The notes below the pieces were generated by a model, which worked only from the letters and a program-made list of their open reading frames with translations, had not been told where the DNA came from and searched no databases. The translations under genes and the position numbers were made by a program. Shown one piece after another: positions 5,736 through 61,249 of a DNA stretch of 64,000 bases. This stretch comes from Vicinamibacterales bacterium (GTDB taxonomy: Bacteria; Acidobacteriota; Vicinamibacteria; Vicinamibacterales; UBA8438), in contig CATQHX010000079.1 in NCBI GenBank assembly GCA_958296065.1, forward strand, positions 68,417 through 132,416, read 5' to 3'. Numbering within the stretch: position 1 is the stretch's first letter; each line of letters begins with the position of its first letter.

Positions 5736-6374
5736 CGGAGACGTGCTGCGCGTTGACGAGCGCCTGAGCGGCATGTACGAATTCCCGGTGCCGCGCGAGC
5801 AGCGGCGCCGCGGCATGCGGCGGACGATGGCTATCGAAAGCTCCAGCAGCACGGTCCGGTATCGCCGGGTGGCGTTCTCCGATCCGGACGAAACGTTGCT
5901 GCTGCCCGCATCGAGCGAGTCGATGACGATCTGGCGCAACGCGGGCGTCGCGCGGCAGTTCATCACCCACGAGATCTCGAACTACCGGCGGTTCGTGACG
6001 GGCGTGCGCGTGATGGGGGCGCCGCGCCGTCGCTGACCGGCGAAGTGATTGGCGAGACCCGGCGGATGCTGGATCGGGCCGGACTACTCGACGACGGCAA
6101 GCTTCGCTATCGCATTCCGTTCCCGCTCGCCATGGACGAACTGATTCCGGACACCGGTGACCCTACGCGGGAACAGGCCTCCGGTACTGGATCATCGGCC
6201 GGTTGACGGCGGCCATCGACCGTTGATTCGGATCAGGCGCGCAGTGCGCCCACGCGCCGTACGCGGACGCTCCACCGGCCCGCCCGGTCGCCCTCGAGGG
6301 TTGCCGTCCGACGGAGGAAGCAGGCCGGTTTACCCATCCGCAGGCACGCGTGTAGAGTGGGGCGTGGAGGGCGT

Positions 6375-8129
6375 ATGTTTGCGATCCGTTGGGCAGTCGT
6401 AGTGTGTCTCGTGATGACTGCGGGCCAGGCGCCGGCGCAGTCGAGCAGTCGCTTCGCCCCGGTGACGGACGAGGTGCTGCAGGATCCCGACCCCGCCGAC
6501 TGGCTCATGTGGCGGCGGACGCTCGACGGATGGGGCTACAGCCCGCTGGATCAAATCGATCGCGACAACGTGGGCGACCTGCGCATGGTCTGGTCGCGAG
6601 CCCTTGGGCCAGGCCTCCAGCAGGGAACGCCGCTCGTCCATGACGGCGTCCTCTACATGCCCAACCCGCGGGACGTCATCCAGGCGATCGACGGCGCCAG
6701 CGGCGATCTCCTGTGGGAATACCGGCGGACGCTCCCCGAGGACGTGGACGAGTTCCTCATCACCGTCCTCGCCGAGATCAACCGCAATCTCGCCATCTAC
6801 GACAATCTCATCATCGACACCAGCGTCGACGACTACGTCTTCGCCCTCGATGCGGCGACCGGCCGGCTGGCCTGGGAGACGCAGATTCTCGACTACCGGA
6901 CGCATCCTGCCAATCAGACATCCGGACCGATCATCGCCGGGGGCAAGGTGATCTCGGGGCGGAGCTGCACCCCGCAGGGTGGACCGGACGCGTGCGTCAT
7001 CACGGCGCACGACGCCCGGACCGGTGAGGAGCTGTGGCGGACGCGCACCATTCCCGCGCCCGGCGAACCGGGCGACGAGAGCTGGGGCGACGTGCCCTAC
7101 GAGGAGCGCAAGCACGTGGGCGCCTGGATGGTGCCCAGCTACGACCCGGCCTTGAACCTCATCTACATCGGCACGTCGGTGACGTCGCCCGCCCCGAAGT
7201 TCATGCTCGGCGGGGCCGACAAGAAGCACCTGTACCACAACTCGACGCTAGCCCTCGACGCCGATACGGGCGAGATCGCCTGGTACTACCAGCATCTCAA
7301 CGACCATTGGGATCTCGATCACCCGTTCGAACGCCTGTTGCTCGACACGGCCGTCGCACCGGATCCGGCGGTCGTGCCCTGGATCAATCCGCGGCTGCGG
7401 CACGGCGAGGTCCGCAAGGTCGTCACCGGCATACCCGGCAAGACCGGCGTCGTCTACACCCTCGACCGCGAGACCGGCGAGTTCCTGTGGGCGACGCCGA
7501 CGGTCACGCAGAACGTGATCAGCGGCATCGACGGCGCCACCGGCGCGGTCACGGAGAACCCGGAGGTCGTCTTCACGGGCAACGGACAGACGGTGCTGGC
7601 CTGCCCGACGCTGGTGGGCGGCAAGGACTGGGAGGCGGGGGCGTACAGTCCGCAGACTAGGCTGATGTACTTTCCGCTGCGCAACGCCTGTGCGCGGATG
7701 ATGGCCACGGCCGGCAGCGACAGCGTTGCCACTTCGCTCTATGCGCTCGCCGTGCGGAGCGAGCTTGCGCCCGGCACGGACCAGCTCGGCACCGTCCAGG
7801 CGATCTCGCCGGAGACCGGAGCGCTCATCTGGAAATACGAGCAACGGGCCGCCACCACCTCGCTCGTCGCGACCGGCGGCGGCCTCGTGTTCGGCGGCGA
7901 CCTCAACGGCCGGTTCCGCGCTCTGGACGCGGAAACCGGGGACGTGCTGTGGGAGGTGAACCTGGGCTCGCCGATCACCGGGTTTCCCATCACGTTCGCA
8001 GTCGACGGCCGGCAATATGTTGCGGTCAGCACCGGCAGCTCGCGCACCGTCGTGTACTTCGCGCCTCTGACCCCCGAGCTGCGCCCGAGCATGGGCAACA
8101 ACCTGTTTGTCTTCGCCTTGCCCGACTAG
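6375..8129 (+). CDS. PQQ-dependent dehydrogenase, methanol/ethanol-family beta-propeller (paralogue 1 of the close trio)
   Basis: Signal peptide, then WLMWRRTLDGWGYSPLDQIDRDNVGDLR (typical PQQ-ADH N-terminus), repeated W-motif blades, NDHWDLDHPFE active-site region, ends FVFALPD. RBS GGAGGG before ATG 6375. Confidence 0.9.
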   Translation: MFAIRWAVVVCLVMTAGQAPAQSSSRFAPVTDEVLQDPDPADWLMWRRTLDGWGYSPLDQIDRDNVGDLRMVWSRALGPGLQQGTPLVHDGVLYMPNPRDVIQAIDGASGDLLWEYRRTLPEDVDEFLITVLAEINRNLAIYDNLIIDTSVDDYVFALDAATGRLAWETQILDYRTHPANQTSGPIIAGGKVISGRSCTPQGGPDACVITAHDARTGEELWRTRTIPAPGEPGDESWGDVPYEERKHVGAWMVPSYDPALNLIYIGTSVTSPAPKFMLGGADKKHLYHNSTLALDADTGEIAWYYQHLNDHWDLDHPFERLLLDTAVAPDPAVVPWINPRLRHGEVRKVVTGIPGKTGVVYTLDRETGEFLWATPTVTQNVISGIDGATGAVTENPEVVFTGNGQTVLACPTLVGGKDWEAGAYSPQTRLMYFPLRNACARMMATAGSDSVATSLYALAVRSELAPGTDQLGTVQAISPETGALIWKYEQRAATTSLVATGGGLVFGGDLNGRFRALDAETGDVLWEVNLGSPITGFPITFAVDGRQYVAVSTGSSRTVVYFAPLTPELRPSMGNNLFVFALPD

Positions 8130-8320: not shown

Positions 8321-9903
<1,583 letters not shown>

Positions 9904-9907
<4 letters not shown>

Positions 9908-10149
9908 CCGTCAGCGAGCTGATCGAGACGCTCAAGGCCCACCCCGGTGATCTGCGGGTCGTCGTCAACGGGTATGAGGAAGGCTACGACGATCTGTCGC
10001 CCGGCCAGATCTCCGTGCGGCGCATTGCGCTGAACACCGGCGTTGAGGACTGGGAGGGCCAACACGGATACGATTGGGAACCTGCTATCCGCGGCAAAGA
10101 GCCGGCGACCATCGTTGACGCGCTGGTCCTCAACCGCGTATCTCACTGA
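9904..10149 (+). CDS. Small hypothetical protein (81 aa) embedded in the R-M cassette
   Basis: ATG 9904 overlaps the hsdM stop (ATGA). Non-repetitive sequence [31 protein letters not shown].... No recognisable family. Confidence 0.45.
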
Positions 10150-10166
10150 CCGCTGCTCTGGCGAAC

Positions 10167-10619
10167 GTGCATCCTGTCATGAGACTCGACCTGACGCCGC
10201 TCGATGATGCGATCGCCCAGTTGGAGGAAGCGATCGAGTACCACGGCTCCGACCTCGCGTCGCGCGACCCCGCGCTCAAGCTGCACCTTCGAGCCGCCGC
10301 GATCCAGGCGTTCGAGTTCACCTACGAGCTGTCCTTCAAGATGGTGAAGCGGCATCTCGAACAGGTCTCCCCGAATCCCGCCGCGTTCGACGAGATGAGC
10401 TTCAAGGCCATCATGCGTGCAGCCTTCCGCCGCGGGTTGGTGCAGTCCGAAGTGTCCATCTGGGACAAGTACCGGATGCTGCGGGGCACGACCAGTCACA
10501 CCTACAACGCAGTCAAGGCGCAGATGGTTTTCGAGAGCCTGCCGGATTTCCTCCGGGAGGCCAGATTCCTCCGGGATCAGCTCAAGCAGAGGAACGAGTC
10601 CCTTGACGACCCCGATTGA
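10167..10619 (+). CDS. HEPN-domain protein, HI0074-like 'nucleotidyltransferase substrate-binding' family (toxin-like partner of MNT)
   Basis: 150 aa. Helical FEFTYELSFKMVKRHL block and Rx4H motif (RGTTSH) characteristic of HI0074/HEPN proteins. Confidence 0.8.
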   Translation: MHPVMRLDLTPLDDAIAQLEEAIEYHGSDLASRDPALKLHLRAAAIQAFEFTYELSFKMVKRHLEQVSPNPAAFDEMSFKAIMRAAFRRGLVQSEVSIWDKYRMLRGTTSHTYNAVKAQMVFESLPDFLREARFLRDQLKQRNESLDDPD

Positions 10620-12222
10620 CATCCGCGCCGACCAACTGCGCATCGTCCACGACGTGCTGGCTCGACATCTGCCGGACGGCGTGCGGGTCTGGGTCTTCGG
10701 GAGCCGCGCCACGTGGGCGACGAAGGACTCGTCCGACCTCGATCTCGCTCTGGAGGGTGACGGCGAGATCCCGGCATGCAGCCTCGCCGCGCTGGAATCC
10801 GCCTTTGAGGACTCGGACCTTCCGTTCGCGGTGGACGTCGTGGACGCCAAGCGGATCGGTGAGGAGTTCAAAGAGATCGTGGCACAGCAGCGGGTGCGCT
10901 TCCCGGAGAGTGACGCCAGTTCGGGCGCGCGAACGAATCCTGCCCGTCGGGTGTCCTTACGCAATCTGTGCGACGCGATTGTGGATTGTCCTCACTCAAC
11001 GCCCAAGTGGACGCCAGACGGCGTCATCGTTCTCCGAAGCAAGAACATCCGAGACGGTCGACTCGACCTTTCTCAGCCGAGCTATACCTCCGAGAAAGAC
11101 TACGCCCAGCGAGTCAGGCGGGCGACCCCACGTGCAGGTGACCTCGTTATCACGAGGGAGGCCCCGATGGGGGAGGTTTGCATGATTCCCGAAGGGTTGC
11201 GCTGCTGCTTGGGCCAGCGCATGGTGTTGCTTCGACCGAGTCTCGTCGCGGCGGATTCTCGATATCTGCTGTACGCTCTCCAGTCGGAGCCTGTCCAGCA
11301 GGAGATTCGATCGCACGATGGTACGGGTTCAACCGTCAGCAATCTCCGTATTTCCCTACTGGAAGGTCTCCGAATTCCGGGCCATCCGCTTTCCGAACAA
11401 CGTGCGATCGCGCACATCCTCGGCGCACTGGACGACAAGATCGAGCTGAACCGACGAATGAACGCGATGCTGGAGGCGATGGCGCGGGCGCTGTTCCGGT
11501 CCTGGTTCGTCGATTTCGACCCCGTGCGGGCCAAGTTGGAAGGCCGCGACACCGGGCTGCCCAAGGACGTCGCCGACCTGTTCCCGGACCGATTGGTAAA
11601 CTCGGAATTGGGCGAAATACCGGAAGGATGGGAACTGAAGTCGCTCGATGCCGTGGCTCGCTTCCAGAACGGGCTCGCACTTCAGAAGTTCCGGCCGTTG
11701 CAGAACGAAGCCCGCCTGCCCGTTGTCAAGATCGCCCAACTCCGAGCTGGCGAGGTGAACAGCGGCGAGTGGGCAAGCGCTAGCATTCAGCCCGAGTGCG
11801 TCATCGAGGACGGAGACGTTGTGTTCTCTTGGTCAGGGAGTCTGTTGGTTCGGACGTGGTGCGGGGGACGGGCCGCCTTGAACCAGCATCTCTTCAAGGT
11901 GACTTCCGAGAAATATCCCAAGTGGTTCTACTTGCACTGTCTCTTGTCACATTTCCCGGAGTTTCAGCGGATTGCCGCGGACAAGGCCACGACAATGGGT
12001 CACATCAAGCGGCATCACTTGGCGGATGCCGTTTGCGTTGCACCTCCTGACCGCGTGATCACCAGGGTTTCCGCTTTGCTCGGAGGATTGTTGGAGCGGC
12101 GAGTGGCAAACGAGGTGGCAAGTCGCACGCTGATGACCTTGCGCGACGCGCTACTTCCGAAGCTGGTTTCCGGAGAGATGCCAGTGCGCAACGCCGAGAA
12201 GATAGTCGGAGCAATCGCATGA
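10603..12222 (+). CDS. hsdS: In-frame fusion of a minimal nucleotidyltransferase (MNT, HI0073-like) to a type I R-M specificity subunit
   Basis: Probable TTG start at 10603, overlapping the HEPN gene by 17 nt. MNT motif VWVFGSRATWATKDSSDLDLAL. No stop before the HsdS body: TRD1 from ~10950, central conserved LSEQRAIAHILGALDDKIELNRRMNAMLEAMARALFRSWFVDFDP, TRD2, C-terminal LRDALLPKLVSGE. An internal GTG near 10950 cannot be excluded. Confidence 0.7.
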   Translation: MTTPIDIRADQLRIVHDVLARHLPDGVRVWVFGSRATWATKDSSDLDLALEGDGEIPACSLAALESAFEDSDLPFAVDVVDAKRIGEEFKEIVAQQRVRFPESDASSGARTNPARRVSLRNLCDAIVDCPHSTPKWTPDGVIVLRSKNIRDGRLDLSQPSYTSEKDYAQRVRRATPRAGDLVITREAPMGEVCMIPEGLRCCLGQRMVLLRPSLVAADSRYLLYALQSEPVQQEIRSHDGTGSTVSNLRISLLEGLRIPGHPLSEQRAIAHILGALDDKIELNRRMNAMLEAMARALFRSWFVDFDPVRAKLEGRDTGLPKDVADLFPDRLVNSELGEIPEGWELKSLDAVARFQNGLALQKFRPLQNEARLPVVKIAQLRAGEVNSGEWASASIQPECVIEDGDVVFSWSGSLLVRTWCGGRAALNQHLFKVTSEKYPKWFYLHCLLSHFPEFQRIAADKATTMGHIKRHHLADAVCVAPPDRVITRVSALLGGLLERRVANEVASRTLMTLRDALLPKLVSGEMPVRNAEKIVGAIA

Positions 12223-12857
12223 CGGCGACGCTGCTCACCGGCCCAGACCGAAGGAAGGGCTGTCTCTGGCGTACGTCAAGGCCCTGGCGGCGCGCGCGGG
12301 TTTCTCGACGGCGGTGCCGGAGCCCGACCGGGACAGCGTCGACGTGCGGATCATGGCAGGCGGGCCGCGTCGTCCGGCCCTTGACCTGCAACCGAAGGCC
12401 ACGAGCCTGCAACAAGGTCATGAAGAGGTCGTGAGACAGGAGACCGCCACGGTTCGCATTCCGGAGGGCAACGTGTTCGACGTGGCGACGGTCCGGACCC
12501 TCATGGAGCTATCGCGAAAGCGGCGACATCTGATGCGAGTCAGCATTCGCGATCGGGGTGCGCTGTCGGTGGTTTCACCGGCGGCGCTGTCGGCGTACGC
12601 CAGCGCGGCCGGTTGGCGCCGGCACGAGCCGTATCGCGAGCACTCGGACGTCTACGTCGGCGAGTCGCGCCCGGAGATCATCGTTCCGCGCACGGAGCGC
12701 CTGGGCGACTACGCGAGCGTCGTCGCGACGCTGATCGATACCTTCGCCGGTGTCACCGGGCAGGACGAGTTGAGCGTCTATCGCTCGTTGGCGACGACGG
12801 ACCGGGACGTGGTCCGCATCCGCGCCGCGGAAAGCGACGACAGCAGCGTGACGTTGA
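12206..12857 (+). pseudogene. DUF4365-like (restriction-endonuclease-fold) N-terminal segment joined to an unrecognised segment; no canonical start or in-register stop
   Basis: The frame opens at 12206. It reads KEGLSLAYVKALAARAGFSTAVPEPDRDSVDVRI...LDLQPKAT (DUF4365-like), then unrelated ...ALSVVSPAALSAYASAAGWRR.... There is no ATG before GTG 12314, and the frame runs on as a GC shadow to 13378. Confidence 0.3.
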
Positions 12858-13292
12858 AACGCCGGCATCGGCGGCGGCACGACCGGTGTCAGGCTGCCGG
12901 AGGTCGAGCGCCGGCTCTATTTCATCGAACGCTATGCCGCGAGTTCCGCCGAGCGGCTGAGCGCGCTGCGATCGCGGCCGGAATCCTGGTGGGAGGGCGA
13001 GACGCGCTTCTTCGATACGACCCGGTCGCGGGCGTGGGTCGTCGTCCGACGCATCGCGCACACGTCGCACCATCGCGGCCAGCAGATGGCAATGCTGCGG
13101 ATGCTCAACCGCGACCTGCACAGCAACTACGGGCCGACCTTCGATACGGGTGGATTGCCGCAGAACCACGCACCGGTGGTCTACGCCTACCCGGATCTCG
13201 ATGGCGTGCTGGCGGGCGAGCGCGCGGGCGGACGCAAGGCGATGCTCCCCGGCCCGAAAGATCAGCCGCCTACCGAGCGGCCGGGGAGTTGA
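12858..13292 (+). pseudogene. 5'-truncated DinB-family gene (C-terminal half only)
   Basis: The frame opens right after stops at 12849/12855. It reads ...RLYFIERYAASSAERLSALRS...RRIAHTSHHRGQQMAMLRMLNRDL..., the C-terminal helix pair and HxxHxGQ motif of DinB_2 proteins. No N-terminal half and no start codon. Confidence 0.5.
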
Positions 13293-13419
13293 GGCGCCGA
13301 TCCGCGGCGACCGCGGCAAGCACGTTGTTGCGGGCCTTTGCGCCTGCCGCTGGTATCCTACCCGGCAGCCCGGCGTGACGGGCGCTGCACGCCCCTCGAC
13401 GCGCCCGGCCGGAGGATCC

Positions 13420-15498
13420 ATGCAGCGAAGGTTCAGGATCGCGCGCGGCGTCGGCCGGCTGGCGATTCATCTGGCGGTCGCGCTGGCCGCGACCGCGGCC
13501 GGTCCGGCGGCGGCGCAGCACGGGGCGCCCGCCAACGGCGAGTGGCCGACCTACGGGGGCGACCTCGGCAGCACGAAGTACTCGCCCCTGGATCAGATCG
13601 ACCGCGACAACTTCGGCGACCTGGAGATCGCGTGGCGCTGGCGGTCCGCGGACGCCGTGCTGAGCCTTACCATGCCGGACGGCTCGGAGTGGCGCGCCGA
13701 CTCGCGGCTGATCTTCGCCGAGCTGAACCGCCGCGATCCGGAGCGGTGGCGCGACGGCCTGCCCCCCACGATCACGAACTTCAAGGCCACCCCGCTGATG
13801 GTCGGCGACCGGCTCTTCATCAACATGCCGACGTCGGCCGCCGCCGCCATCGACGCGCGGACGGGCGAGACGCTGTGGGTCTACAACCCCAAGAGCTATG
13901 AGGAAGGCACCACGACGATGTCCGCCCGCTGGAACCAGCGCGGCGTGGCGTACTGGTCGAACGGCCCGGACCGGAGCGACGAGCGGATCTTCTTCGGCAC
14001 CGGCAACGGGTATCTCGTCTGCGTCGACGCGAAGAACGGCCGGCCGTGCGCCGACTTCGGGGACGGCGGCCGGCTGGACCTGATGGAGGGCATCCCGCGC
14101 GCGGCGCGCGGCGCGCGCGACTGGCTGAACGCGCTGCTGTACTCCGTGCAGTCTCCGCCCATCGTGTTCGGGGACACGGTGGTGACGCCGATGTCGATCT
14201 CCAGCTACAACATCCGCCGGGAGATGCCGCCGGGCTGGATGCGCGGCTTCGACGCGCGCAGCGGACGCACCCGCTGGACGTTCCACACGATCCCGCAGGG
14301 CGACGAGTTCGGCAACGACACCTGGGGCGGCGATTCCTGGCGCGAGACCGGCAAGGTGGGCGTGTGGACGATGATGAGCATCGATCCCGAACTCGGCTAC
14401 ATCTACCTGCCGCTGAACACGGCCGCGCCCGACTACTACGGCGGACACCGGCCCGGCGCCAACCTGTTCGCCGAGAGCCTCGTCGCCCTCGACCTGGAGA
14501 CCGGCGAGCGGGTGTGGCACTTCCAGGTCGTCCACCACGGACTGTGGGACTACGACCTGCCCGCCGCCCCGAACCTGATCGACATCACCGTCGACGGCCG
14601 GCGGATCGAGGCGGTGGCGCAGATCACCAAGCAGGGCTTCACGTTCGTCTTCGACCGGGCGACGGGCGAGCCGGTCTGGCCGATCGAGGAGCGCCCGGTG
14701 CCGACCGACACCGACATCGAGGGCGAGACGCCGTGGCCGACCCAGCCGTTTCCGACCCGGCCGGCGCCGTTCGACTACCAGGGCGTGGCGATAGACGATC
14801 TCGTCGACTTCACGCCCGAGATTCGGCAGATGGCGATCGAGGCGGTCGCGCCGTACCGCATCGGCCCGCTGTATACGCCGCACAGCCTGCGGGGCACCAT
14901 CGTGCGGCCCGGGTTCAGCGCGGGAAGCTGGGGGGGCGCCGCGGTCGATCCCGAGACCGGCATGCTGTACGTGCCGTCGGGCAACCGCTACACGGTCAAG
15001 CACTTCCGCGCGCCGGCGCCGGGCGAGGACGCCAGCCTCGCGGTGCTCGAGGCGCGCGGCGCCGCGGCCCACCGCCCGCAGTTGCCGCAGGGGCTGCCGT
15101 TGTTCAAGCCGCCCTACTCGCGGATGACGGCCATCGACATGCACACGGGCGAGCACCGGTGGATGCGGCCGCTGGGCGACGGCAACCGGATCCGCAACCT
15201 CCCGCTGCTGCGCGACCTGGATCTACCGCCGCTCGGCGGCGACAGCGGGCGCATCGGCTCGGTGCTGACGAAGACGCTGCTGATTCACGCGCTGACCGCG
15301 GGCGGCACCGGCGACGGCCCGCGCCTGGTCGCCTTCGACAAGGCGACCGGCGAGGAGATAGCGTCCGTCGATCTGCCGGGCGGCGCCATCGGCACGCCCA
15401 TGACCTACCTGTCGGGCGGGCGGCAGTACATCGCGCTGACCGTCGGCGGCGGACGCGTGCCGGAGCTGATCGCCCTGGCGCTGCCGGCCGGCGATTAG
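13420..15498 (+). CDS. PQQ-dependent dehydrogenase, long (~690 aa) soluble clade related to glucose/quinate-type propellers (paralogue A)
   Basis: Internal ATG 13420 preceded by GGAGGA. Signal peptide, WPTYGGDLGSTKYSPLDQIDRDNFGDLEIAWRW, HHGLWDYDLPAAP active-site region, ends GGRQYIALTVGG...ALALPAGD. Confidence 0.9.
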   Translation: MQRRFRIARGVGRLAIHLAVALAATAAGPAAAQHGAPANGEWPTYGGDLGSTKYSPLDQIDRDNFGDLEIAWRWRSADAVLSLTMPDGSEWRADSRLIFAELNRRDPERWRDGLPPTITNFKATPLMVGDRLFINMPTSAAAAIDARTGETLWVYNPKSYEEGTTTMSARWNQRGVAYWSNGPDRSDERIFFGTGNGYLVCVDAKNGRPCADFGDGGRLDLMEGIPRAARGARDWLNALLYSVQSPPIVFGDTVVTPMSISSYNIRREMPPGWMRGFDARSGRTRWTFHTIPQGDEFGNDTWGGDSWRETGKVGVWTMMSIDPELGYIYLPLNTAAPDYYGGHRPGANLFAESLVALDLETGERVWHFQVVHHGLWDYDLPAAPNLIDITVDGRRIEAVAQITKQGFTFVFDRATGEPVWPIEERPVPTDTDIEGETPWPTQPFPTRPAPFDYQGVAIDDLVDFTPEIRQMAIEAVAPYRIGPLYTPHSLRGTIVRPGFSAGSWGGAAVDPETGMLYVPSGNRYTVKHFRAPAPGEDASLAVLEARGAAAHRPQLPQGLPLFKPPYSRMTAIDMHTGEHRWMRPLGDGNRIRNLPLLRDLDLPPLGGDSGRIGSVLTKTLLIHALTAGGTGDGPRLVAFDKATGEEIASVDLPGGAIGTPMTYLSGGRQYIALTVGGGRVPELIALALPAGD

Positions 15499-15599
15499 GA
15501 AGGTTGAGGGCCCGGTCTACAGGACCGCCGGGGGGGAGCGCCGGCCGCCGCGCTGCCGGTGACATAATCGGCTGCAATCGCCAACACCGAGGAGGGGTC

Positions 15600-17384
15600 A
15601 TGCGCGCATTCGACTGGCCGTCGTTCCCGTTTCGCCCGGCGCTCGTCACGTGCGGCCTGGTGGCCGTCTTCCTGGCGGGCGTGTGCGTGCCCGCCGTCCT
15701 CGCGCAGGAGCCGGATCGCATCCGTCCCGTCACCGACGCGGAGCTGCTGGACCCGAGCCCGGACGAGTGGCTGATGTGGCGCCGCACGCTCAACGGCTGG
15801 GGCTACAGCCCGCTCGATCAGGTCAATCGCGACACCGTCGGCAGCCTCCGCCTGGTCTGGAGTCGCGCCCTGGCGACCGACGGCCGCCAGCAGGGGACGC
15901 CGCTGGTCCGCAACGGGGTGATGTTCATGCCGAACCCGCAGGACACCATCCAGGCCATCGACGCGGTGACCGGCGACCTGATCTGGGAGTACCGCCGCGA
16001 CCGGCCGGACGATCTGGGCGACTACATGATCGGCAGCCTGATCGACACCAACCGCAACATCGCGATCCACGGCGAGCTGATCTTCCACACCAGCATGGAC
16101 GATCATCTCGTCGCCCTCCACGCGGAGACGGGCGAGGTGGTGTGGGACACGGAGATCCTCGACTACACGGTGAACCCGGCCAACCAGACCTCGGGGCCGA
16201 TCGTCGCCAACGGCAAGGTGTACTCCGGCCGGAGCTGCGATCCGCGGGGCGGGCCGCACGGCTGCGTCATCACCGCCCACGACGCGGCGACCGGCGAGGA
16301 GCTGTGGCGGCGGCGGCTGATCCCCGGACCGGGCGAGCCGGGCGACGAGACCTGGGGCGACGTCCCGTTCGAGGAGCGCGGACACGTCGGCTCGTGGATG
16401 GTGCCGAGCGTCGACCCCGAGCTGAACCTGGTCTACGTCGGCACGTCGGTCACCTCTCCCGCGCCGAAGTTCATGCTGGGCGGCGCTGACCTGACGCACC
16501 TTTACCACAACTCGACGCTGGCCCTGCACGGCGACACCGGCGAGATCGTGTGGCACTACCAGCACATGAACGACCACTGGGATCTGGACCATCCGTTCGA
16601 GCGGCTCCTGGTCGACACGGCGGTCCGCCCGAACGCAACTGCGGTGAGCTGGATCAACCCGCGCATCGAGCCGGGCGAGGAGCGGCGGGTGCTGACCGGC
16701 ATCCCCGGCAAGACGGGCATCGTCTACACGCTCGACCGCGAGACCGGCGAGTTCCTGTGGGCCACGCCGACCATCACGCAGAACGTGGTGAGCGGCATCG
16801 ACGGCGCCACCGGCCAGGTGACCGAGAACGCCGAGCTCATTTTCACCGCCAGCGGCCAGCAGGTGCTGGCCTGCCCGCACGCCAGCGGTGGCAAGGACTG
16901 GGAGGCGGGCGCCTACTCGCCGCGGACCAACACGATGTACATGCCGCTGCGCAACGTCTGCGCGCGGATGATGGCCGAAGACCCGGACAACCGGACCAAC
17001 CGGCTCTACGCCATCGCGTGGCGGTCGGAGCTCGCCCCCGGCTACGACGACGTGGGCAGCGTGCACGCCATCTCGGCCGAGACCGGCGAGACCATCTGGA
17101 ACTACCAGCAGCGGGCGGCCACCATGGCGCTGGCCGCCACCGGCGGCGGGCTGGTCTTCGGCGGCGACGTCAACGGGCGCTTCCGGGCCTTCGACGACAC
17201 CACGGGAGAGATCCTCTGGGAGATCAATCTCGGCTCGCCGGTGTCGGGCTTCCCGGTCACCTTCGCGGTGGACGGCCGGCAGTACGTGGCGATCAGCGTT
17301 GGCACCGGCCGCTTCCTGGACCTGACGCCGGAGCTGCGCCCGAGTAGCGGCAACAACCTCTTCGTCTTCGCTTTGCCGGAGTAG
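15600..17384 (+). CDS. PQQ-dependent dehydrogenase, methanol/ethanol family (paralogue 2 of the close trio)
   Basis: ATG 15600 preceded by GAGGAGGGG. The first 518 codons of ORF 14046-17384 are out-of-frame read-through of the upstream gene. Near-collinear with 6375 and 19513 (WLMWRRTLNGWGYSPLDQVNRD..., NDHWDLDHPFE, ...FVFALPE). Confidence 0.9.
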   Translation: MRAFDWPSFPFRPALVTCGLVAVFLAGVCVPAVLAQEPDRIRPVTDAELLDPSPDEWLMWRRTLNGWGYSPLDQVNRDTVGSLRLVWSRALATDGRQQGTPLVRNGVMFMPNPQDTIQAIDAVTGDLIWEYRRDRPDDLGDYMIGSLIDTNRNIAIHGELIFHTSMDDHLVALHAETGEVVWDTEILDYTVNPANQTSGPIVANGKVYSGRSCDPRGGPHGCVITAHDAATGEELWRRRLIPGPGEPGDETWGDVPFEERGHVGSWMVPSVDPELNLVYVGTSVTSPAPKFMLGGADLTHLYHNSTLALHGDTGEIVWHYQHMNDHWDLDHPFERLLVDTAVRPNATAVSWINPRIEPGEERRVLTGIPGKTGIVYTLDRETGEFLWATPTITQNVVSGIDGATGQVTENAELIFTASGQQVLACPHASGGKDWEAGAYSPRTNTMYMPLRNVCARMMAEDPDNRTNRLYAIAWRSELAPGYDDVGSVHAISAETGETIWNYQQRAATMALAATGGGLVFGGDVNGRFRAFDDTTGEILWEINLGSPVSGFPVTFAVDGRQYVAISVGTGRFLDLTPELRPSSGNNLFVFALPE

Positions 17385-23021: not shown

Positions 23022-23086
23022 GGGAGCCGGCGGCCCGCGGCCCGCCGGTGGATGTCGCTGCACGGGCCGTTTACCCCCACTTCTGA

Positions 23087-23123
23087 GGCAGGCAATCTCG
23101 TCTCTCGGGCAGGCAATCTCGTC
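23087..23123 (+). promoter_or_regulatory. Perfect 16-bp direct repeat (x2, 21-bp register) upstream of the PQQ dehydrogenase at 23163
   Basis: ggcaggcaatctcgtc at 23087-23102 and again at 23108-23123. A third half-site, gcaggcaa, lies at 23134-23141. This is a candidate transcription-factor operator. Confidence 0.4.
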
Positions 23124-23162
23124 GCCGTCGCTCGCAGGCAACGGAAGGGAAGGACCAGACCC

Positions 23163-25244
23163 ATGCAGGGCTCGATGACACGGTTCGCAATCCGGACCTC
23201 GCTCGGCGCATTCCTTGTGGTCGGGGTCGTGGCAGGCGCCGTCGGCGGCGTCCTGTTGGCTCCCGTTCCGGCCGTCGCCCAGGAGACCGGGACGCCGGCC
23301 GGCGAGTGGCGCTACATCGGCGGCGACGCCGGGCACACGCGCTACTCGGGCCTCGATCAGATCACCGCCGACAACTTCGAGGACCTGGAGCTGGCGTGGG
23401 TCTGGCGCGGCGACAACTTCGGGTCGTCCGCGCTAGGCGTGTCGCGTTCGACGCCGATCTACGTCGACGGCGTGCTCTACACCGTGGCCGGCGAGCGCCG
23501 CACCGTGGTGGCCATGGATCCGGCGACCGGTGAGACGCTCTGGACCTTCCGTGAGGCGCACACCACCCGCTTCGACCGCGGGATGCGCCAGGGCTACGGC
23601 AAGGGCGTGGCCTACGCCGAGATCGACGGCCGCGGCGTCATCTACATCATCAGTCCCGCCTTCTTCCTCCACGCGCTCGACGCCAAGACCGGCCGGCCGC
23701 TGGAGAACTGGGGCAACGCGGTGCCGCTGCCCGGCTTCCCGCAGACCGGCGTGGTCGACATGCTGCCCGACCTGATCGCCGACTGGGGCCCCTGGCAGAG
23801 CTGGGACGGCGCCTACGACCCGGACTTCGGCATCCCCCGCGAACTGGGCTACATCACCAGCTCGTCGCCGCCGATCGTGGTCAACGGCGTGGTCGTGGTC
23901 GGCAACTCGGCCGAGCAGGGCTACAACCAGACCCGCGTCGAGAACGTGCCGGGCGACATCCTCGGCTACGACGCCCGCACCGGCGAGCACAAGTGGAAGT
24001 TCCACGTCATCCCGCGCCCCGGCGAGTTCGGGCACGAGACCTGGGAGAACGACGCCTGGGAGTGGACCGGCGACGTCTCGTCGTGGGCGCCGCTGTCGGC
24101 CGACGCCGAGCGGGGGCTGGTCTACGTGCCGACCAACCCGCCGACCATCGACTTCTACGGCGGGTTCCGGCCCGGCGACGGGCTGTTCGGGACCAGCGTC
24201 ATCGCGCTCGACGTCGAGACCGGCGAGCGGGTCTGGCACTTCCAGACCGTGCACCACGACATCTGGAACTTCGACAACCCGACCGCGCCGGTGGCTCTCG
24301 ACGTCACCGTGGACGGCCGGCCTCGGCAGATCGTCGTTCAGGCGACCAAGCAGGGCTGGGCCTATACCTTCGATCGGGTGACCGGCGAGCCGGTCTGGCC
24401 CATCGAGGAACGGCCGGTGCCGCAGTCCGAGGTGCCGGGCGAGCAGCTCTCGCCGACCCAGCCGATGCCCACCCGGCCGGCCGCCTACGAGATGCAGGGG
24501 CTGACCGAGGACGACCTGATCGACTTCACGCCGGAGCTGCGGGCCGAGGCGCTCGAGATCATCCGGAACTACCGGATTGGACCGATCTTCAATCCCCCGA
24601 TCCAGCGCGGGCACCCGTCGGGGCTGCGCTCGTTCGTGAGCTGCCCGAGCGGCGCCTCGAACATCCACGGTCCGACGTCGGCGGATCCCGAGACCGGCAT
24701 CATCTACGTCGGGACGCGGCGCGGCTGCCGCTCCGAGAACATCGTCCCGGGCGAGCTCATCGATGCCCCTAACGACATCAAGACCACCGGCCGCACCTAC
24801 TCCCAATTCGCGGTCGTGAACCGCGGCGACTTCCGCGGGCCGCAGGGCCTGCCCATCTACAAGCCGCCCTACAGCCGCATCGTCGCCATCGACATGAACA
24901 CCGGCGAGCACCTCTGGGAGACGCCCAACGGCGACACCCCCGAGCGCATCCGCAACCACCCGGCCCTGCAGGGCGTGGAGCTGCCGAACACCGGCGTGCC
25001 GGCGCACCCGGTCACCATGGTCACGAAGACGCTGCTGATCACGGCCGAGGGCACGGCCGGGCTGCCGCGCCTGCACGCGCTCGACAAGCGGACCGGCGAG
25101 CGGCTCGGCACGGTGGCGCTACCCGCCTCGGGGCAGTACGGGATGATGGGCTACCTGCACGAGGATCGGCAGTACATCGTGGTGCAGGTGGCCGGGCCCG
25201 GTCTGCCGGGGTCGCTGGCGGCGCTGCGGTTGCCGACGCCCTGA
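23163..25244 (+). CDS. PQQ-dependent dehydrogenase, long soluble clade (paralogue B of 13420)
   Basis: Internal ATG 23163. Signal peptide, [47 protein letters not shown], ends [12 protein letters not shown]...AALRLPTP. Collinear with 13420-15498. Confidence 0.9.
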
Positions 25245-32708: not shown

Positions 32709-32856
32709 GTGCCGGACGCCGGGAAGCGACCGTGATTCCACCGAACGGCCATCGGCCCGACAAACGGCGTCGATAGTCTGCACGGATCCTGCCGGGGCCG
32801 GTCCACGGCCCCGCTTCATCTCCTCCAACGGGACCAGATTGAGGGAAGGTAAACCG

Positions 32857-35013
32857 ATGCCGTCTTCACGTTCGCGCCGGGTGCTCATAGCGGTCCTCCT
32901 CGTCACGGCCGGTCTCTCCCGGCCGGCGGCACAGGGGCAGGAGGTCACCACGGCGGCCCTCGAGCAGGCAGCGTCGGACACCTCGTCGTGGCTGATGTAC
33001 GGCCGCGACTACCACGGCCAGCGCTTCGTGGAGCTGGACGAAATCACGCCGGAGAACGTGAACCGCCTCCAGCCCGCCTGGGTGTTCGCCACCGGCGGCG
33101 AGAACCGCGGCCTGGAGGCCACGCCGCTGGTGCACGAGGGCGTCATCTACCTGTCGGCCGACGAGTCGCGGGTGTTCGCCCTCGACGCGCGCACCGGGGC
33201 GAAGAAGTGGGGCTTCGAGCCGGAGATGTCGGACGAGGTCGAGCGGGTCTACTGCTGCGGGTCGAACAACCGCGGCGTGGCGCTGTTCGGCGAGCTGGTC
33301 TACGTCGGGACGATGGACGCGCGGCTGATCGCGCTGCACAAGGACACCGGCGCCGTGGTGTGGGAGAGCGTGGTCGTCGACTGGCGGCAGGGCTACAGCA
33401 TCACCGGCGCGCCGCTGGTGGTCAACGGCATGGTCCTGACCGGGGTGGCCGGTGGGGAGTACGGCATCCGCGGCTTCGTCAAGGCCTACGACGCGCTGAC
33501 CGGCGAGCCGCGCTGGACCACCTACACCATCCCGGGTCCGGGGGAGCCGGGCAACGAGACGTGGCCGGGCGATACCTGGAAGAACGGCGGCGCCCCCACG
33601 TGGACGACGGGCGTCTTCGATCCCGAGCTGAACCTGGTCTACTGGAACACCGGCAACGCCGCGCCCTGGAACTGTCACGTCCGCAAGGGCGACAACCAGT
33701 GGTCGGCCGCGACCGTCGCCATCGACGCCGACAACGGCGAGATCCGCTGGGGATTCCAGTACACGCCGTGGGACTGCTGGGACTACGACGCGGTCAGCAC
33801 GCCGGTGCTGGCCGACGTGACCCTGCGCGACCACGGGCCGGTCAAGGCGCTGTTCCACCACGACAAGAACGGCTTCTTCTACGCCCTCGACCGCACCGAC
33901 GGCCGCTTCCTGTACGGCGAACCGATCGTGCCGGGCATCAACTGGGCCTTCGGGCTCGACCCGGAGACCGGGCGCCCGGAGATCAATCCCGACATGCTGG
34001 CGCAGTCGGGCGGCCCCGAGGTGGGGCCCATCATTCCCAGCCTGGAAGGCGCCATCGACTGGCAGCCGCTCGCCTTCAATCCCGGCCTGGGCGCGCTGTA
34101 CTTCATGTCCAACCAGTGGGCGATGGGCTACCGCTTCTGGGCCGAGGACCAGTTCGAGCCGCCGACCAACGGCGAGGCGTATCTCGGCGGCGACTACCAG
34201 CAGTACCTGACCAGCGACAACCCCGGCAACTTCGTCGGCTTCGACGTGGTGAAGCAGGAGGTCATGTGGCGCGTGGTGAGCCCGGCGCCGTTCTGGGCGG
34301 GTGCGGTGGCCACCTCCAGCGGGCTGGTGTTCACCGGCGACATGCGCGGCTACTTCATGGCCCTCGACGCCCGCGGCGGCGACGTGCTGTGGCAGTTCCA
34401 GACCGGCTCGGGCATCATCGGCAGCCCCATCACCTACGAGCTCGACGGGACGCAGTACGTGGCGGTGCCGTCCGGCGGCATCGGCGGGGACATGACGTTC
34501 TATTACACCGAGCCGAAGGCGGGGAACCTCTGGGTCTTCGCGCTCGACGGCGGTCCCCGGGAGGTCCAGGCTGGGACGAACCTGACGCCGCTGCCGGGCG
34601 GCCTGCCGCGGGTCGGCGAGCCGGGCCACACGCTGGGCGGCCGCGTGCTGCCGGGATACGGCTTCGAACCCACGGAAGGGGCCGAGCCCAGCGCGCCGGG
34701 TACGCCGTTCGTGGCGCCCGGATCGTTCGCACCGCCCGTCCCCGACGCGAGCGATGCGGCCAATACCCTGCTGGGCGATGCGACGGCGGTCGCCGCCGGC
34801 GAACGGATCTACCGCGCGCGCTGCGCCGTGTGCCACCGCACCGGCGGCGGCGCTGGTCCGAGCCTGTTCCGGAACAGTCTCCCGCTCGGCCGATTCCTGG
34901 ATACGGTGAACGGAGGACGCGAGGGCACGAACATGCCCGCCTTCCAGGAGCTGCTCTCGCGCGACGAGATCCGGCAAGTGCACGCCTTCCTGATGTCGCG
35001 CGACGCGTTGTAG
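32857..35013 (+). CDS. Quinohaemoprotein alcohol dehydrogenase (PQQ propeller plus C-terminal cytochrome c domain)
   Basis: Signal peptide. WLMYGRDYHGQRFVELDEI. Vicinal disulphide motif YCCGSNNRG typical of PQQ-ADHs. WDCWDYDAVS. C-terminal CAVCH haem motif with downstream NMPAF. Confidence 0.9.
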   Translation: MPSSRSRRVLIAVLLVTAGLSRPAAQGQEVTTAALEQAASDTSSWLMYGRDYHGQRFVELDEITPENVNRLQPAWVFATGGENRGLEATPLVHEGVIYLSADESRVFALDARTGAKKWGFEPEMSDEVERVYCCGSNNRGVALFGELVYVGTMDARLIALHKDTGAVVWESVVVDWRQGYSITGAPLVVNGMVLTGVAGGEYGIRGFVKAYDALTGEPRWTTYTIPGPGEPGNETWPGDTWKNGGAPTWTTGVFDPELNLVYWNTGNAAPWNCHVRKGDNQWSAATVAIDADNGEIRWGFQYTPWDCWDYDAVSTPVLADVTLRDHGPVKALFHHDKNGFFYALDRTDGRFLYGEPIVPGINWAFGLDPETGRPEINPDMLAQSGGPEVGPIIPSLEGAIDWQPLAFNPGLGALYFMSNQWAMGYRFWAEDQFEPPTNGEAYLGGDYQQYLTSDNPGNFVGFDVVKQEVMWRVVSPAPFWAGAVATSSGLVFTGDMRGYFMALDARGGDVLWQFQTGSGIIGSPITYELDGTQYVAVPSGGIGGDMTFYYTEPKAGNLWVFALDGGPREVQAGTNLTPLPGGLPRVGEPGHTLGGRVLPGYGFEPTEGAEPSAPGTPFVAPGSFAPPVPDASDAANTLLGDATAVAAGERIYRARCAVCHRTGGGAGPSLFRNSLPLGRFLDTVNGGREGTNMPAFQELLSRDEIRQVHAFLMSRDAL

Positions 35014-60369: not shown

Positions 60370-61249
60370 AGAGGCTTCCGCGTTCTCTGTGAGCGTGGAG
60401 AACGGCGACGCGTCTCGAATCGAAAACCGTCGGAAAGTCACGGAAGACAACCGAGCAAGGGCCTCTGGAATGCAAAGTCCTGCAGTTGGAAAGCAGAAGC
60501 AAGTCACCGCGTTCCAGCGTAAACGACGTCGCGATGGATGTCGCGGCATCCTCCACGCCGGCGATATCTTCCTCGACCGCATGAACCGCACCACCCGATC
60601 GTCGTGCGGCCGCTCTGATCGTGTCCGGGTGATAGCGAATGGTGCCGGCGTCGACCATTCTTCCGGACCATTGCACCGCCGAACGATCGTTCAGCATGGC
60701 GACAGTATCCTGTACAAGGAAACGTCGCGTGCGTTCGTTGTACTCTCGGTTGACGAAGTCCAGCAGATTCCGGAGGCGCGCGATGCTGGTGACTCCATAG
60801 CGCGGACTCCCTGGGTCCGGCTCCAGACACTGTATCGCAGTAATCGCCGGAGGATGTGGCTCGGTGTTTAGATCCGTATGGAACTCCCCAGCCCGTGTCG
60901 TATGCGACAGATCCGTCGTCCATGGCGACATCTTGAAATGCTTGATCACCTTGCCGTTACGGTAGGTTCTCAGCGCTTCCCCTACCGTCAACGTGGCCAC
61001 GAGCAATGCTGCGCCGTCCTGGACCGAGGGAAACCCCCGAAGGACGGCGTAGTCGTTGTCTCGAAAAACTCGACGAACCTCATCCTGAAAGTGCCGCCAC
61101 GACTCGGTGTGAAACAAGAGGAGGTCGTCGATTCGATCCGAGACAACCATTTCCTCAAGACGGCATGCTGCGTCCGGGGCCGCGCACGTCTTTGCAACGG
61201 CAGCAGCCACCGGGCCAGGCGTCACGAGCTGCGCCACACAGTCCTTCAT
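60362..61249 (-). CDS. TauD/TfdA-like Fe(II)/2-oxoglutarate dioxygenase (295 aa), second copy
   Basis: HxD motif AGEFHTDLN (H124/D126). Distal GDLLLLSNCRTLHSRG. Its ATG overlaps the upstream methyltransferase stop by 4 nt, and its 3' end overlaps the UvrA-like start by 8 nt. Confidence 0.7.
   Translation of the reverse strand: MKDCVAQLVTPGPVAAAVAKTCAAPDAACRLEEMVVSDRIDDLLLFHTESWRHFQDEVRRVFRDNDYAVLRGFPSVQDGAALLVATLTVGEALRTYRNGKVIKHFKMSPWTTDLSHTTRAGEFHTDLNTEPHPPAITAIQCLEPDPGSPRYGVTSIARLRNLLDFVNREYNERTRRFLVQDTVAMLNDRSAVQWSGRMVDAGTIRYHPDTIRAAARRSGGAVHAVEEDIAGVEDAATSIATSFTLERGDLLLLSNCRTLHSRGPCSVVFRDFPTVFDSRRVAVLHAHRERGSLYE

Follow-up and report, generated by a model that had tools for sequence, protein, structure and literature searches.

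What does a gene for a predicted RNase toxin do between hsdM and hsdS of a type I restriction-modification (R-M) locus, and what follows if its putative antitoxin is the N-terminal domain of the specificity subunit itself? The question is raised by a stretch of 64,000 nucleotides (nt) from a Vicinamibacterales bacterium (assembly GCA_958296065.1, contig CATQHX010000079.1, positions 68,417 to 132,416), the whole of which is called the window here. Positions 8321-12222 of the window form a single compact plus-strand operon of hsdM, an 81-amino-acid (aa) open reading frame (ORF), a HEPN gene, and a gene in which a minimal nucleotidyltransferase (MNT) domain is continuous with HsdS (MNT::hsdS). 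We consider it probable that this locus is a part-decayed copy, lacking hsdR, of a widespread type I R-M operon variant into which a type VII-like toxin-antitoxin (TA) pair is built, with the antitoxin carried on HsdS. The variant itself has the order hsdM, optional small ORFs, HEPN, MNT::hsdS, optional accessory genes, and hsdR. Unless another sample is named, counts of related loci refer to 80 of 110 confirmed loci, one genome per species in the GTDB set, within the MNT subclade of the window (10-sequence alignment); these loci come mostly from metagenome-assembled genomes (MAGs), some of them long-read assemblies with indel errors.

The MNT::HsdS protein and its operon

The features of the operon are listed here by position in the window.

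8321-9907, plus strand: hsdM, type I N6-adenine DNA methyltransferase subunit (528 aa, NPPF motif)
9904-10149, plus strand: 81-aa ORF, whose ATG overlaps the hsdM stop as ATGA
10167-10619, plus strand: HEPN gene, HI0074/HepT-like predicted RNase toxin (PF08780, TIGR01987)
10305-10316, plus strand: QAFE (QxFE) motif in HEPN
10482-10505, plus strand: RGTTSHTY, the Rx4HxY motif of HEPN (residues 106-113)
10589-10593, plus strand: GAGGA Shine-Dalgarno (SD) sequence within the HEPN coding sequence, 9 nt before the TTG
10603-10605, plus strand: TTG start codon of MNT::HsdS, 17 nt inside the HEPN 3' end (overlap 10603-10619)
10603-10902, plus strand: MNT domain, HI0073/MntA-type minimal nucleotidyltransferase without the C-terminal alpha4 helix (residues 1-100)
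10699-10743, plus strand: GSRATWATKDSSDLD, the GSx10DxD nucleotidyltransferase catalytic motif (residues 33-47)
10903-10944, plus strand: linker, predicted to be disordered (residues ~101-114)
10945-12222, plus strand: HsdS part, with target recognition domain (TRD) 1, central conserved helix, TRD2 and C-terminal helix (residues ~115-539)

The reading frame of the fusion is free of stop codons from 10399 to 12222, and the TTG at 10603 lies in this frame and gives a product of 539 aa (10603-12222, plus strand). The N-terminal module matches Pfam Polbeta (2.3e-07; Polbeta/MNT residues 28-95), and a search of its profile against the PDB returns 1no5 (HI0073) at 3.7e-36, the MNT protein 8xeh at 1e-13 and 5yep at 4e-09. 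An AlphaFold2 (AF2) model built from 120 homologues has a mean confidence (pLDDT) of 91.7 and consists of two folded modules joined by a low-confidence linker; the MNT module is modeled at above 90, while pLDDT is 58 for residues 101-110 and falls below 50 for residues 106-110. In Foldseek comparisons of this model the MNT part superimposes on 1no5 with a TMt of 0.87 and an rmsd of 1.7 Å, and on the Legionella MNT protein 8xeo with a TMt of 0.85. The domain carries the GSX10DXD motif of type VII antitoxins; G33, S34, D45 and D47 are invariant among 36 diverse fused MNT domains, and GSx10-11DxD is found in all 76 of the 76 fused proteins. The linkers of homologues differ in both length and sequence.

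The remainder of the protein is an HsdS subunit with two TRDs and conserved helices between them. It matches PADLOC Specificity_I at 4e-121 (residues 124-536 against profile positions 21-454 of 458) and Pfam Methylase_S; the AF2 model places long helices at residues 263-303 and 483-523, and Foldseek retrieves 1yf2 (1e-20) as well as 2y7c, the EcoKI M2S1 complex. Pfam, PADLOC, profile and structure-model evidence thus agree with the initial annotation, which had described an MNT domain with a GS...DLD motif running without a stop into a complete two-TRD HsdS. Positions 2-97 of another PADLOC Specificity_I profile, PDLC03138, align to the MNT domain, which implies that fused proteins already sit, unremarked, in the profile sets used for S subunits.

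The gene upstream of the pair encodes an N6-adenine methyltransferase with an HsdM_N domain (Pfam N6_Mtase 1.1e-104, HsdM_N 2.9e-28; PADLOC MTase_I 3e-213) and is 93.7% identical to the hsdM of a related locus, L004. ORF coordinates and Pfam matches confirm the order of hsdM at 8321-9907, the 81-aa ORF and HEPN that had been noted at the outset. The 81-aa ORF has no match in Pfam, NCBIfam or PADLOC; it is found in seven of the 80 related loci, with 81-84% identity to its counterparts in L003 and L002 and complete identity in L091. In other related loci a HicB-like antitoxin gene stands in its place.

The HEPN protein has a single domain, PF08780 (5.9e-29, residues 8-141), and scores 80.5 bits against the HI0074 family model TIGR01987, for which the cut-off is 55.8; its best match in the PDB is the HI0074 crystal structure, 1jog (5.5e-25), with a weaker match to the Legionella HEPN toxin 8xdj (8e-07). 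The start of translation is probably ATG 10179, which gives 146 aa and is the one called for L091, a near-identical locus; GTG 10167 is the mechanical start of the ORF. The Rx4H motif RGTTSH reported initially is present, although it is incomplete: the full motif is RGTTSHTY, the Rx4HxY of type VII toxins, which is kept in 68 of 71 upstream HEPNs of the relatives. In the characterized pairs the MNT protein AMPylates the tyrosine of this motif, so that the HEPN RNase is blocked (PMC7641770; PMC11586414). The QxFE motif, kept in 65 of the 71, appears to follow the pattern of Q44/E47, the proposed Mg2+ site of the Legionella HEPN (PMC11586414); this is a likeness of pattern and not of aligned residues.

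Spread of the fused family

The exact fused protein is present in public collections (P0001), and a homology search with the whole protein gave 8000 significant matches, with E-values down to 1e-151 and beyond. An N-terminal GSx10-11DxD precedes HsdS in 90 of the 120 top homologues, at identities down to ~43-50%; the strength and number of these fused homologues place the fusion far beyond chance. The MNT ORF shows HsdS homology in 76 of the 80 related loci, and 72 of these ORFs are at least 480 aa long. On the same strand, the HEPN gene ends directly at the MNT start in 71 of the 80, hsdM lies upstream in 70 and hsdR downstream in 67. Frameshifted or decayed loci (L046, L081, L021 and L014) and a solitary remnant (L078) make up the exceptions to the fusion. 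Single look-ups in three further MNT subclades returned the hsdM-HEPN-MNT::hsdS order again. The fusion of MNT and HsdS is the usual state of a large family and not a singular event, and the database search for such fusions that the initial annotation proposed has thereby found them in quantity.

The same annotation held that a stop or frameshift found between MNT and hsdS on resequencing would undo the fusion. L091, which was assembled from a different sample, shares 99.14% identity with the window over 11.3 kb and keeps the same intact 539-aa ORF, flanks and deletion scars. Frameshifts do occur in related long-read metagenome assemblies (P0007, L046, L081 and L021), but the intact ORF of L091 at 0.86% nucleotide divergence, together with fusion in 76 of 80 species and in the RefSeq plasmid pZMOB01 of a cultured strain, leads us to regard an assembly or sequencing artefact, by which a missing stop or an indel falsely joins two genes, as virtually out of the question.

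The mismatches between the window and L091 are unevenly distributed. The HEPN and MNT::HsdS segment (10179-12222) has 3 in ~2.0 kb, hsdM has 9 in 1.6 kb (4 synonymous and 5 non-synonymous), the upstream pyrroloquinoline quinone (PQQ)-dependent dehydrogenase gene has 13 in 1.8 kb (11 synonymous), and the deletion scar has 12 in 1.07 kb. The toxin and antitoxin::S segment may be unusually uniform on these small counts, through selection, recent exchange or chance.

The hosts of the fused family span ~11 phyla and more than 100 species, nearly all represented by MAGs. They include Vicinamibacterales and other Acidobacteriota, Bryobacterales, Dehalococcoidia, Anaerolineae, Caldilineaceae, Gemmatimonadota, Spirochaetia, Gammaproteobacteria, Opitutales, Thermodesulfobacteriota, Dadabacteria and Latescibacterota, with a single archaeal host, in the Nitrosopumilaceae, among the related loci. 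The isolate labels RHO1_bin, RHO3_bin, APA_bin, IRC4_bin and SB066x_bin resemble those of what we presume to be marine-sponge bins, and an enrichment in sponge symbionts may exist; labels of this type belong to L024-L026, L031, L035, L037, L043, L053, L071, L076, L079 and L082.

A cultured example of the fusion is found on plasmid pZMOB01 of Zymomonas mobilis ATCC 10988 (NC_017180.1), where a HEPN gene, a 527-aa MNT::HsdS (WP_014466389.1; Pfam Polbeta and Methylase_S) and hsdR occur together and the fused protein is annotated merely as 'restriction endonuclease subunit S'. On Acetobacter plasmids (NZ_CP015170.1 and NZ_CP023190.1) the order is hsdM-HEPN-MNT-hsdS-hsdR, with MNT (100 aa) and HsdS as separate genes 2-12 nt apart. 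Both kinds of operon share their Pfam families and gene order with the window, and their products are annotated as subunit S or as 'nucleotidyltransferase domain-containing protein'; we found no functional study of either the pZMOB01 or the Acetobacter operons. The hsdS gene of a plasmid of Z. mobilis ZM4 (zmop32x028) was considered as a test of toxicity, as its deletion is viable with a near-normal doubling time (PMC8432527). Neither an MNT fusion nor a HEPN neighbor was established for this gene, pZM32 was absent among the plasmid matches, and no conclusion is drawn from it.

A search of 1.84 billion cluster representatives (50% identity level) with the MNT domain alone gave 831 matches at E<=1e-10. 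Most of the best 150 of these are full-length fusions: 84 are at least 480 aa long, 48 are of 160-479 aa and 18 are shorter than 160 aa. The middle class, of which three sequences were read, probably consists of contig-truncated or broken fusions, judging by length. Of the short matches, P0127, P0182, P0150, P0156 and P0215 are fusions that have broken, with out-of-frame sequence at their ends, and P0155, P0186, P0187, P0190, P0222, P0239, P0269 and P0270 are apparently genuine stand-alone MNT proteins of 103-111 aa.

These stand-alone proteins and the Acetobacter operons bear on how the fusion arose. A HEPN-MNT pair may have inserted between hsdM and hsdS, where accessory genes frequently land, as a selfish hitch-hiker, lost the MNT stop codon and spread horizontally with the R-M cassette, in which case the fusion would be neutral. 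The unfused loci have the identical order, and with a gap of 2-12 nt between MNT and hsdS the loss of a single stop codon is enough for fusion; the linker is short, disordered and unconserved; and the 103-111-aa MNT proteins, at 43-56% identity, are interspersed among the fused ones. On the other hand, the fusion is kept in 76 of 80 species, in ~11 phyla and at least five MNT subclades, and through repeated replacement of TRD1; the exceptions are frameshifted or decayed loci and not clean fissions; and conserved classes of gene overlap and a conserved start context, described below, point to selection on co-expression. Close relatives combine near-identical MNT domains with unrelated TRD1 types, so MNT behaves as a constant N-terminal module through TRD shuffling. 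We therefore hold a neutral origin by hitch-hiking to be possible but somewhat unlikely, and we are similarly hesitant about its functional corollary, that MNT acts in cis or in trans like any MntA with no functional coupling to R-M activity.

Several rarer forms of the fused gene were seen. A tandem double MNT precedes HsdS in seven of the 80 loci (L010, L021, L051, L060, L067, L071 and L083); the second MNT motif of P0087 is degenerate (GDR...SDLNI), and P0120 is likewise listed with the tandem-MNT cases. P0044 (685 aa; MAG contig OZ242039.1, 5.67 Mb) is an in-frame HEPN-MNT-HsdS triple fusion in which Rx4H is kept, a histidine occupies the position of the AMPylated tyrosine, and an internal methionine marks the old MNT start; it is a lone case from a long-read MAG, in which a sequencing indel is possible. 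An apparent second case, P0007 (630 aa), was rejected as a frameshift product that contains an alternative-frame peptide of the HEPN 3' end.

Loss of hsdR from the window copy

A tblastn search of the 64-kb window with three HsdR proteins of related loci gave no match at E<=1e-3, and none of HSDR_N, ResIII and SWI2_SNF2 was found in the nine largest ORFs of the window. The absence of hsdR that had been reported at the outset is thus borne out, and the window copy is a remnant with M and S and not a complete type I system. As a feature of design the absence does not hold, as 67 of 80 relatives carry hsdR downstream and the window shows the scars of a deletion, which consist of three gene fragments.

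12219-12517, plus strand: remnant of DUF4365/PDC-M02A, whose ATG overlaps the hsdS stop and which then suffers a frameshift and an internal deletion
12533-12859, plus strand: first 109 codons of PDC-M02B, then truncated (tblastn, PADLOC)
12858-13292, plus strand: C-terminal half of a DinB-family gene, in another frame, on the far side of the hsdR deletion

The related locus L004 has the order hsdM, HicB-like gene, HEPN/MNT::hsdS, DUF4365, M02B, hsdR, and comparison of this order with the scars at 12219-13292 indicates a deletion that reached from within M02B, across hsdR, into the middle of a DinB gene. In the DUF4365 remnant, residues 9-161 of the L004 protein fall on just 276 nt (tblastn), the Pfam profile is matched only at positions 3-57 of 139, and PADLOC reports PDC-M02A fragments. 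The M02B fragment corresponds to residues 1-109 of the L004 protein at 91% identity and to PADLOC profile positions 8-112 of 389. The DinB fragment covers Pfam profile positions 79-145 of 165 (E=3e-4) at 21.1 bits, slightly below the 23-bit cut-off. PDC-M02, a candidate defense pair of PADLOC made up of DUF4365 and M02B, lies between hsdS and hsdR in 14 of the 80 related loci; the intact pair (M02A ~165 aa, M02B ~380 aa) is absent from the window and present in L004 at 11890-13523. Loci that lack hsdR and are otherwise intact in hsdM, HEPN and hsdS are a minority; they comprise eight of the 72 loci for which 6 kb or more of sequence is available downstream, and also L085 and L086.

The R-M cassette of the window lies inside an array of paralogous PQQ-dependent dehydrogenase genes, at least four of which surround it (6357-8129, 13150-17384, 23052-25244 and 32839-35013); the copies at ~6.4-8.1 kb and 15.7-17.4 kb share ~76% DNA identity. 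At a distance of ~37 kb from the R-M locus, the ORF at 49534-51801 (plus strand) encodes a protein of 755 aa that matches AAA_16 weakly, and directly after it comes the ORF of a 927-aa protein (51802-54585, plus strand) with Pfam A_deaminase at residues 800-874 and a partial PADLOC RdrB match (3.4e-37, profile positions 499-616 of 914). By its domains this pair looks like a divergent RADAR-like ATPase and deaminase defense pair. A 1494-aa ORF on the minus strand (56110-60594) has UvrA DNA-binding and ABC_tran domains and is far longer than canonical UvrA.

Coupled translation and control of the toxin

The start codon proposed at the outset, a probable TTG at 10603 that overlaps the HEPN gene by 17 nt, is supported by conservation both of the codon and of its SD sequence. 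The codon homologous to 10603 is a start codon in all of 84 related loci (TTG in 61, ATG in 19 and GTG in 4); the junction DNA of the same 84 loci contains a conserved GAGGA ~9 nt 5' of the MNT start, within the HEPN coding sequence, and an SD core precedes the MNT start in 59 of 73 loci. The overlap between HEPN and MNT falls into classes of 17 nt (35 loci), 8 nt (29 loci) and 1 nt (5 loci). We discarded the mechanical start of the ORF, GTG 10417, from which 601 aa would be read. The first 62 of these correspond to HEPN read in an alternative frame, and many relatives have an in-frame stop nine codons before the TTG, which shows that this extension is not real. The overlap classes and the weak TTG suggest that translation of the toxin gene is coupled to that of the antitoxin::S gene, whose own initiation would be weak; a catalytic antitoxin and the low dosage of S in M2S1 would both fit such a scheme.

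HsdS might also be made separately from an internal start, at GTG 10951 or near it, to yield a free MNT-containing product and a HsdS of ~420 aa. The internal GTG near 10950 that the initial annotation offered does exist in frame, and it is one of three in-frame GTGs, at residues 98, 117 and 127. The frequency of a start codon with an SD sequence is 0.0098 per codon in the linker, against 0.0058 in the gene body (1.7-fold), and the linkers of 33 of 73 loci hold at least one such site. However, none of the three GTGs of the window is preceded by an SD sequence, only six of 73 linkers contain an ATG with SD, no start is conserved in position, and the full-length ORF has no stop, so the conserved TTG would still yield the fused protein. 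The comparative data favor the fused protein, and we consider separate production of HsdS improbable.

For the favored reading, an R-M operon with a built-in TA pair, homologues suggest the following mechanism. Ribosomes that end HEPN would re-initiate on MNT::HsdS and make a little catalytic antitoxin; its MNT domain would AMPylate the tyrosine of the HEPN Rx4HxY motif and keep the RNase silent. As a domain of HsdS, the antitoxin would belong to the M2S1 and R2M2S1 complexes, and the silence of HEPN would depend on the supply of S and would last only while the intact subunit keeps being made. Such dependence would make the hsdM-HEPN-hsdS core hard to lose, and an RNase back-up may be available when the R-M complex is disabled; addiction and a back-up in the manner of PrrC would be non-exclusive readings. 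The initial annotation had likewise suggested that the fusion could be an addiction or back-up device. The recurrence of copies that lack hsdR and are otherwise intact, the window included, is consistent with addiction.

Comparison with characterized systems gives insight into which parts of this proposal have precedents. The Legionella pneumophila pair lpg2920/lpg2921 has HEPN first and MNT second, with frames that overlap by 8 bp, as in 29 of the related loci; its MNT is short and without alpha4, and its RX4HXY motif carries the AMPylated tyrosine, Y105 (PMC11586414; PDB 8xdj, 8xeh and 8xeo). It differs in that its MNT is a free 108-aa protein, with ~22% identity to the MNT domain of the window, and in that no R-M context is reported. 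The founding type VII systems, HepT/MntA of Shewanella oneidensis (SO_3166/SO_3165) and HEPN/MNT of Aphanizomenon (PDB 5yep, 6m6u and 7ae9), share the GSX10DXD nucleotidyltransferase, the RX4HXY HEPN RNase and neutralization by tyrosine AMPylation (PMC7641770). In these the antitoxin gene comes first, an extra C-terminal helix of MntA binds HepT, and there is no R-M link. Type VII pairs are two small, adjacent, co-transcribed genes with the antitoxin usually upstream; in the window the two are adjacent and overlapping, but the toxin comes first and the antitoxin is a domain of HsdS. The nearest solved structures by sequence are HI0073/HI0074 of Haemophilus influenzae (1no5 and 1jog), with 37-38% identity in MNT; these are free proteins, described as a two-subunit nucleotidyltransferase and not in an R-M operon. 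We take the HI0073 (MNT) gene to precede the HI0074 (HEPN) gene, going by locus numbering.

On the R-M side, the window shares with canonical type I systems (EcoKI and EcoR124I; 1yf2, 2y7c and 7bst) HsdM and a two-TRD HsdS with conserved helices, and typical relatives add HsdR with HSDR_N, ResIII, SWI2_SNF2 and T1RH-like_C. The window differs from these systems in the extra 100-aa enzymatic N-terminal domain of HsdS, in a toxin gene that would be coupled to hsdS, and in the lack of hsdR. With PrrC-EcoprrI and RloC it shares a HEPN RNase gene within an hsd operon, placed here and in 71 of 80 relatives between hsdM and hsdS. In PrrC and RloC an N-terminal ABC-ATPase forms part of a large protein and there is no enzymatic antitoxin, whereas the HEPN protein of the window has 146-150 aa and no ABC-ATPase; control here would run through a covalently tethered AMP-transferase, whose association with the complex is suggested by the gene fusion. 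The PDB entries 9z7q, 9z7v and 9z7x, titled 'Cmr1-MntA', match the MNT profile at 3e-09. They indicate that an MntA-type domain fused to another defense complex, that of type III CRISPR, is already in the PDB, as a possible parallel to MNT::HsdS; we found no paper on the Cmr1-MntA structure.

The likeness to PrrC also allows the system to be read as a guard that serves mainly abortive infection (Abi) and not addiction, in which the R-M complex bears its own AMPylating antitoxin. PrrC is a latent RNase restrained by R-M proteins and freed when a phage inhibits restriction, a logic proposed to be general, and the analogy of a HEPN gene in a type I hsd operon to PrrC/EcoprrI has been proposed for R-M-linked HEPNs (PMC3710099). 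With the antitoxin tethered to HsdS, the state of the complex could readily be sensed; the R-M system is complete in most loci (hsdR in 67 of 80), which often carry further defense genes (PDC-M02 in 14 of 80); and the toxin-first order with a weak TTG antitoxin start would suit a system poised to fire. We nevertheless find this guard role doubtful, as there is no known trigger, the 146-aa HEPN lacks the ABC-ATPase sensor domain of PrrC/RloC, unfused Acetobacter forms exist, and copies without hsdR, the window among them, keep a module for which a pure restriction back-up has no need. We are just as reserved about the mechanism it would use: an anti-restriction protein (an Ocr/ArdA DNA mimic or a Stp-like peptide) from a phage that binds or distorts M2S1/R2M2S1, or a stop in S synthesis through host shut-off, would end the silencing of new HEPN, and the RNase would arrest translation. 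AMPylation is covalent, so release would require de-AMPylation or new synthesis.

A further reading dispenses with the toxin. HI0073/HI0074 is called a 'two protein nucleotidyltransferase' in its PDB title and an 'NTase substrate binding protein' in Pfam, and HEPN and MNT could together form a two-subunit nucleotidyltransferase that HsdS brings to DNA and that acts on another target, such as HsdM, HsdR, DNA ends or a small molecule; a DNA-binding subunit as tether would fit a DNA-directed activity. The Rx4HxY RNase/AMPylation motif is, however, present in 68 of 71 HEPNs, in the nearest characterized pair, that of Legionella, HEPN is a toxic RNase and MNT AMPylates it (PMC11586414), and HEPN domains that bind substrates usually lose their catalytic residues (Anantharaman et al.). 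We judge this reading very improbable.

Several points weigh against the operon with a built-in TA pair that we favor. The toxicity of the HEPN protein of the window, its AMPylation by the fused MNT and the link to R-M activity are all argued from homologues. The MNT domain lies nearer to HI0073 (1no5) than to the curated MntA model, NF047752, which scores it at 34.4 bits against a cut-off of 60. The unfused Acetobacter operons indicate that covalent tethering is dispensable for the module. As an N-terminal domain, MNT would outlive most nonsense and frameshift mutations in hsdS, which weakens a simple addiction logic of protecting hsdS. Remnants with M and S but no R are common in type I systems at large, so their recurrence in fused loci is weak evidence for addiction. 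Conservation of the TTG may partly stem from the overlapping HEPN codons (CTT GAC). Finally, a neutral origin by stop-codon loss with horizontal spread, as set out above, is a serious rival.

Type I R-M, type VII TA and the HI0073/HI0074 pair are known components, and HEPN genes have been seen before in R-M loci. Anantharaman et al. describe R-M-associated HEPN domains fused to nucleases, helicases and ATPases, and a fusion of MNT with a specificity subunit goes unmentioned there. We found no description of an MNT-HsdS fusion in the literature, including work on HEPN, TA and BREX, although such an absence is not proof. What is apparently new is a toxin-first HEPN-MNT pair between hsdM and hsdS in which MNT is covalently fused to HsdS and would be translationally coupled to the toxin; we found no such arrangement described. 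The family is large and has gone unremarked, and the window contains a single decayed copy of it.

Type I R-M systems and HEPN-MNT TA pairs have each been studied extensively. To our knowledge, PrrC is the only accessory toxin of R-M operons whose wiring to the R-M machinery is known mechanistically. In the family described here the wiring would be one of protein architecture, with the specificity subunit housing the antitoxin enzyme and being coupled in translation to the toxin gene, and annotation pipelines hide the MNT domain under 'restriction endonuclease subunit S'. A model for R-M/TA integration is at hand in the fused form on pZMOB01, the unfused controls on Acetobacter plasmids and the remnants without hsdR; deleting or engineering such an hsdS for transformability could unleash the toxin. 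The R-M complex might even act as the physical keeper of the HEPN RNase, with its loss, its sequestration or a halt in S synthesis releasing an Abi RNase, although we think this rather unlikely. If it were true, phage inhibitors of the Ocr/ArdA type, host shut-off and loss of the locus would be candidate triggers, and the locus would represent an enzymatically controlled hybrid of R-M and Abi, apart in mechanism from PrrC and common across Acidobacteriota, Chloroflexota and further phyla with few cultured members.

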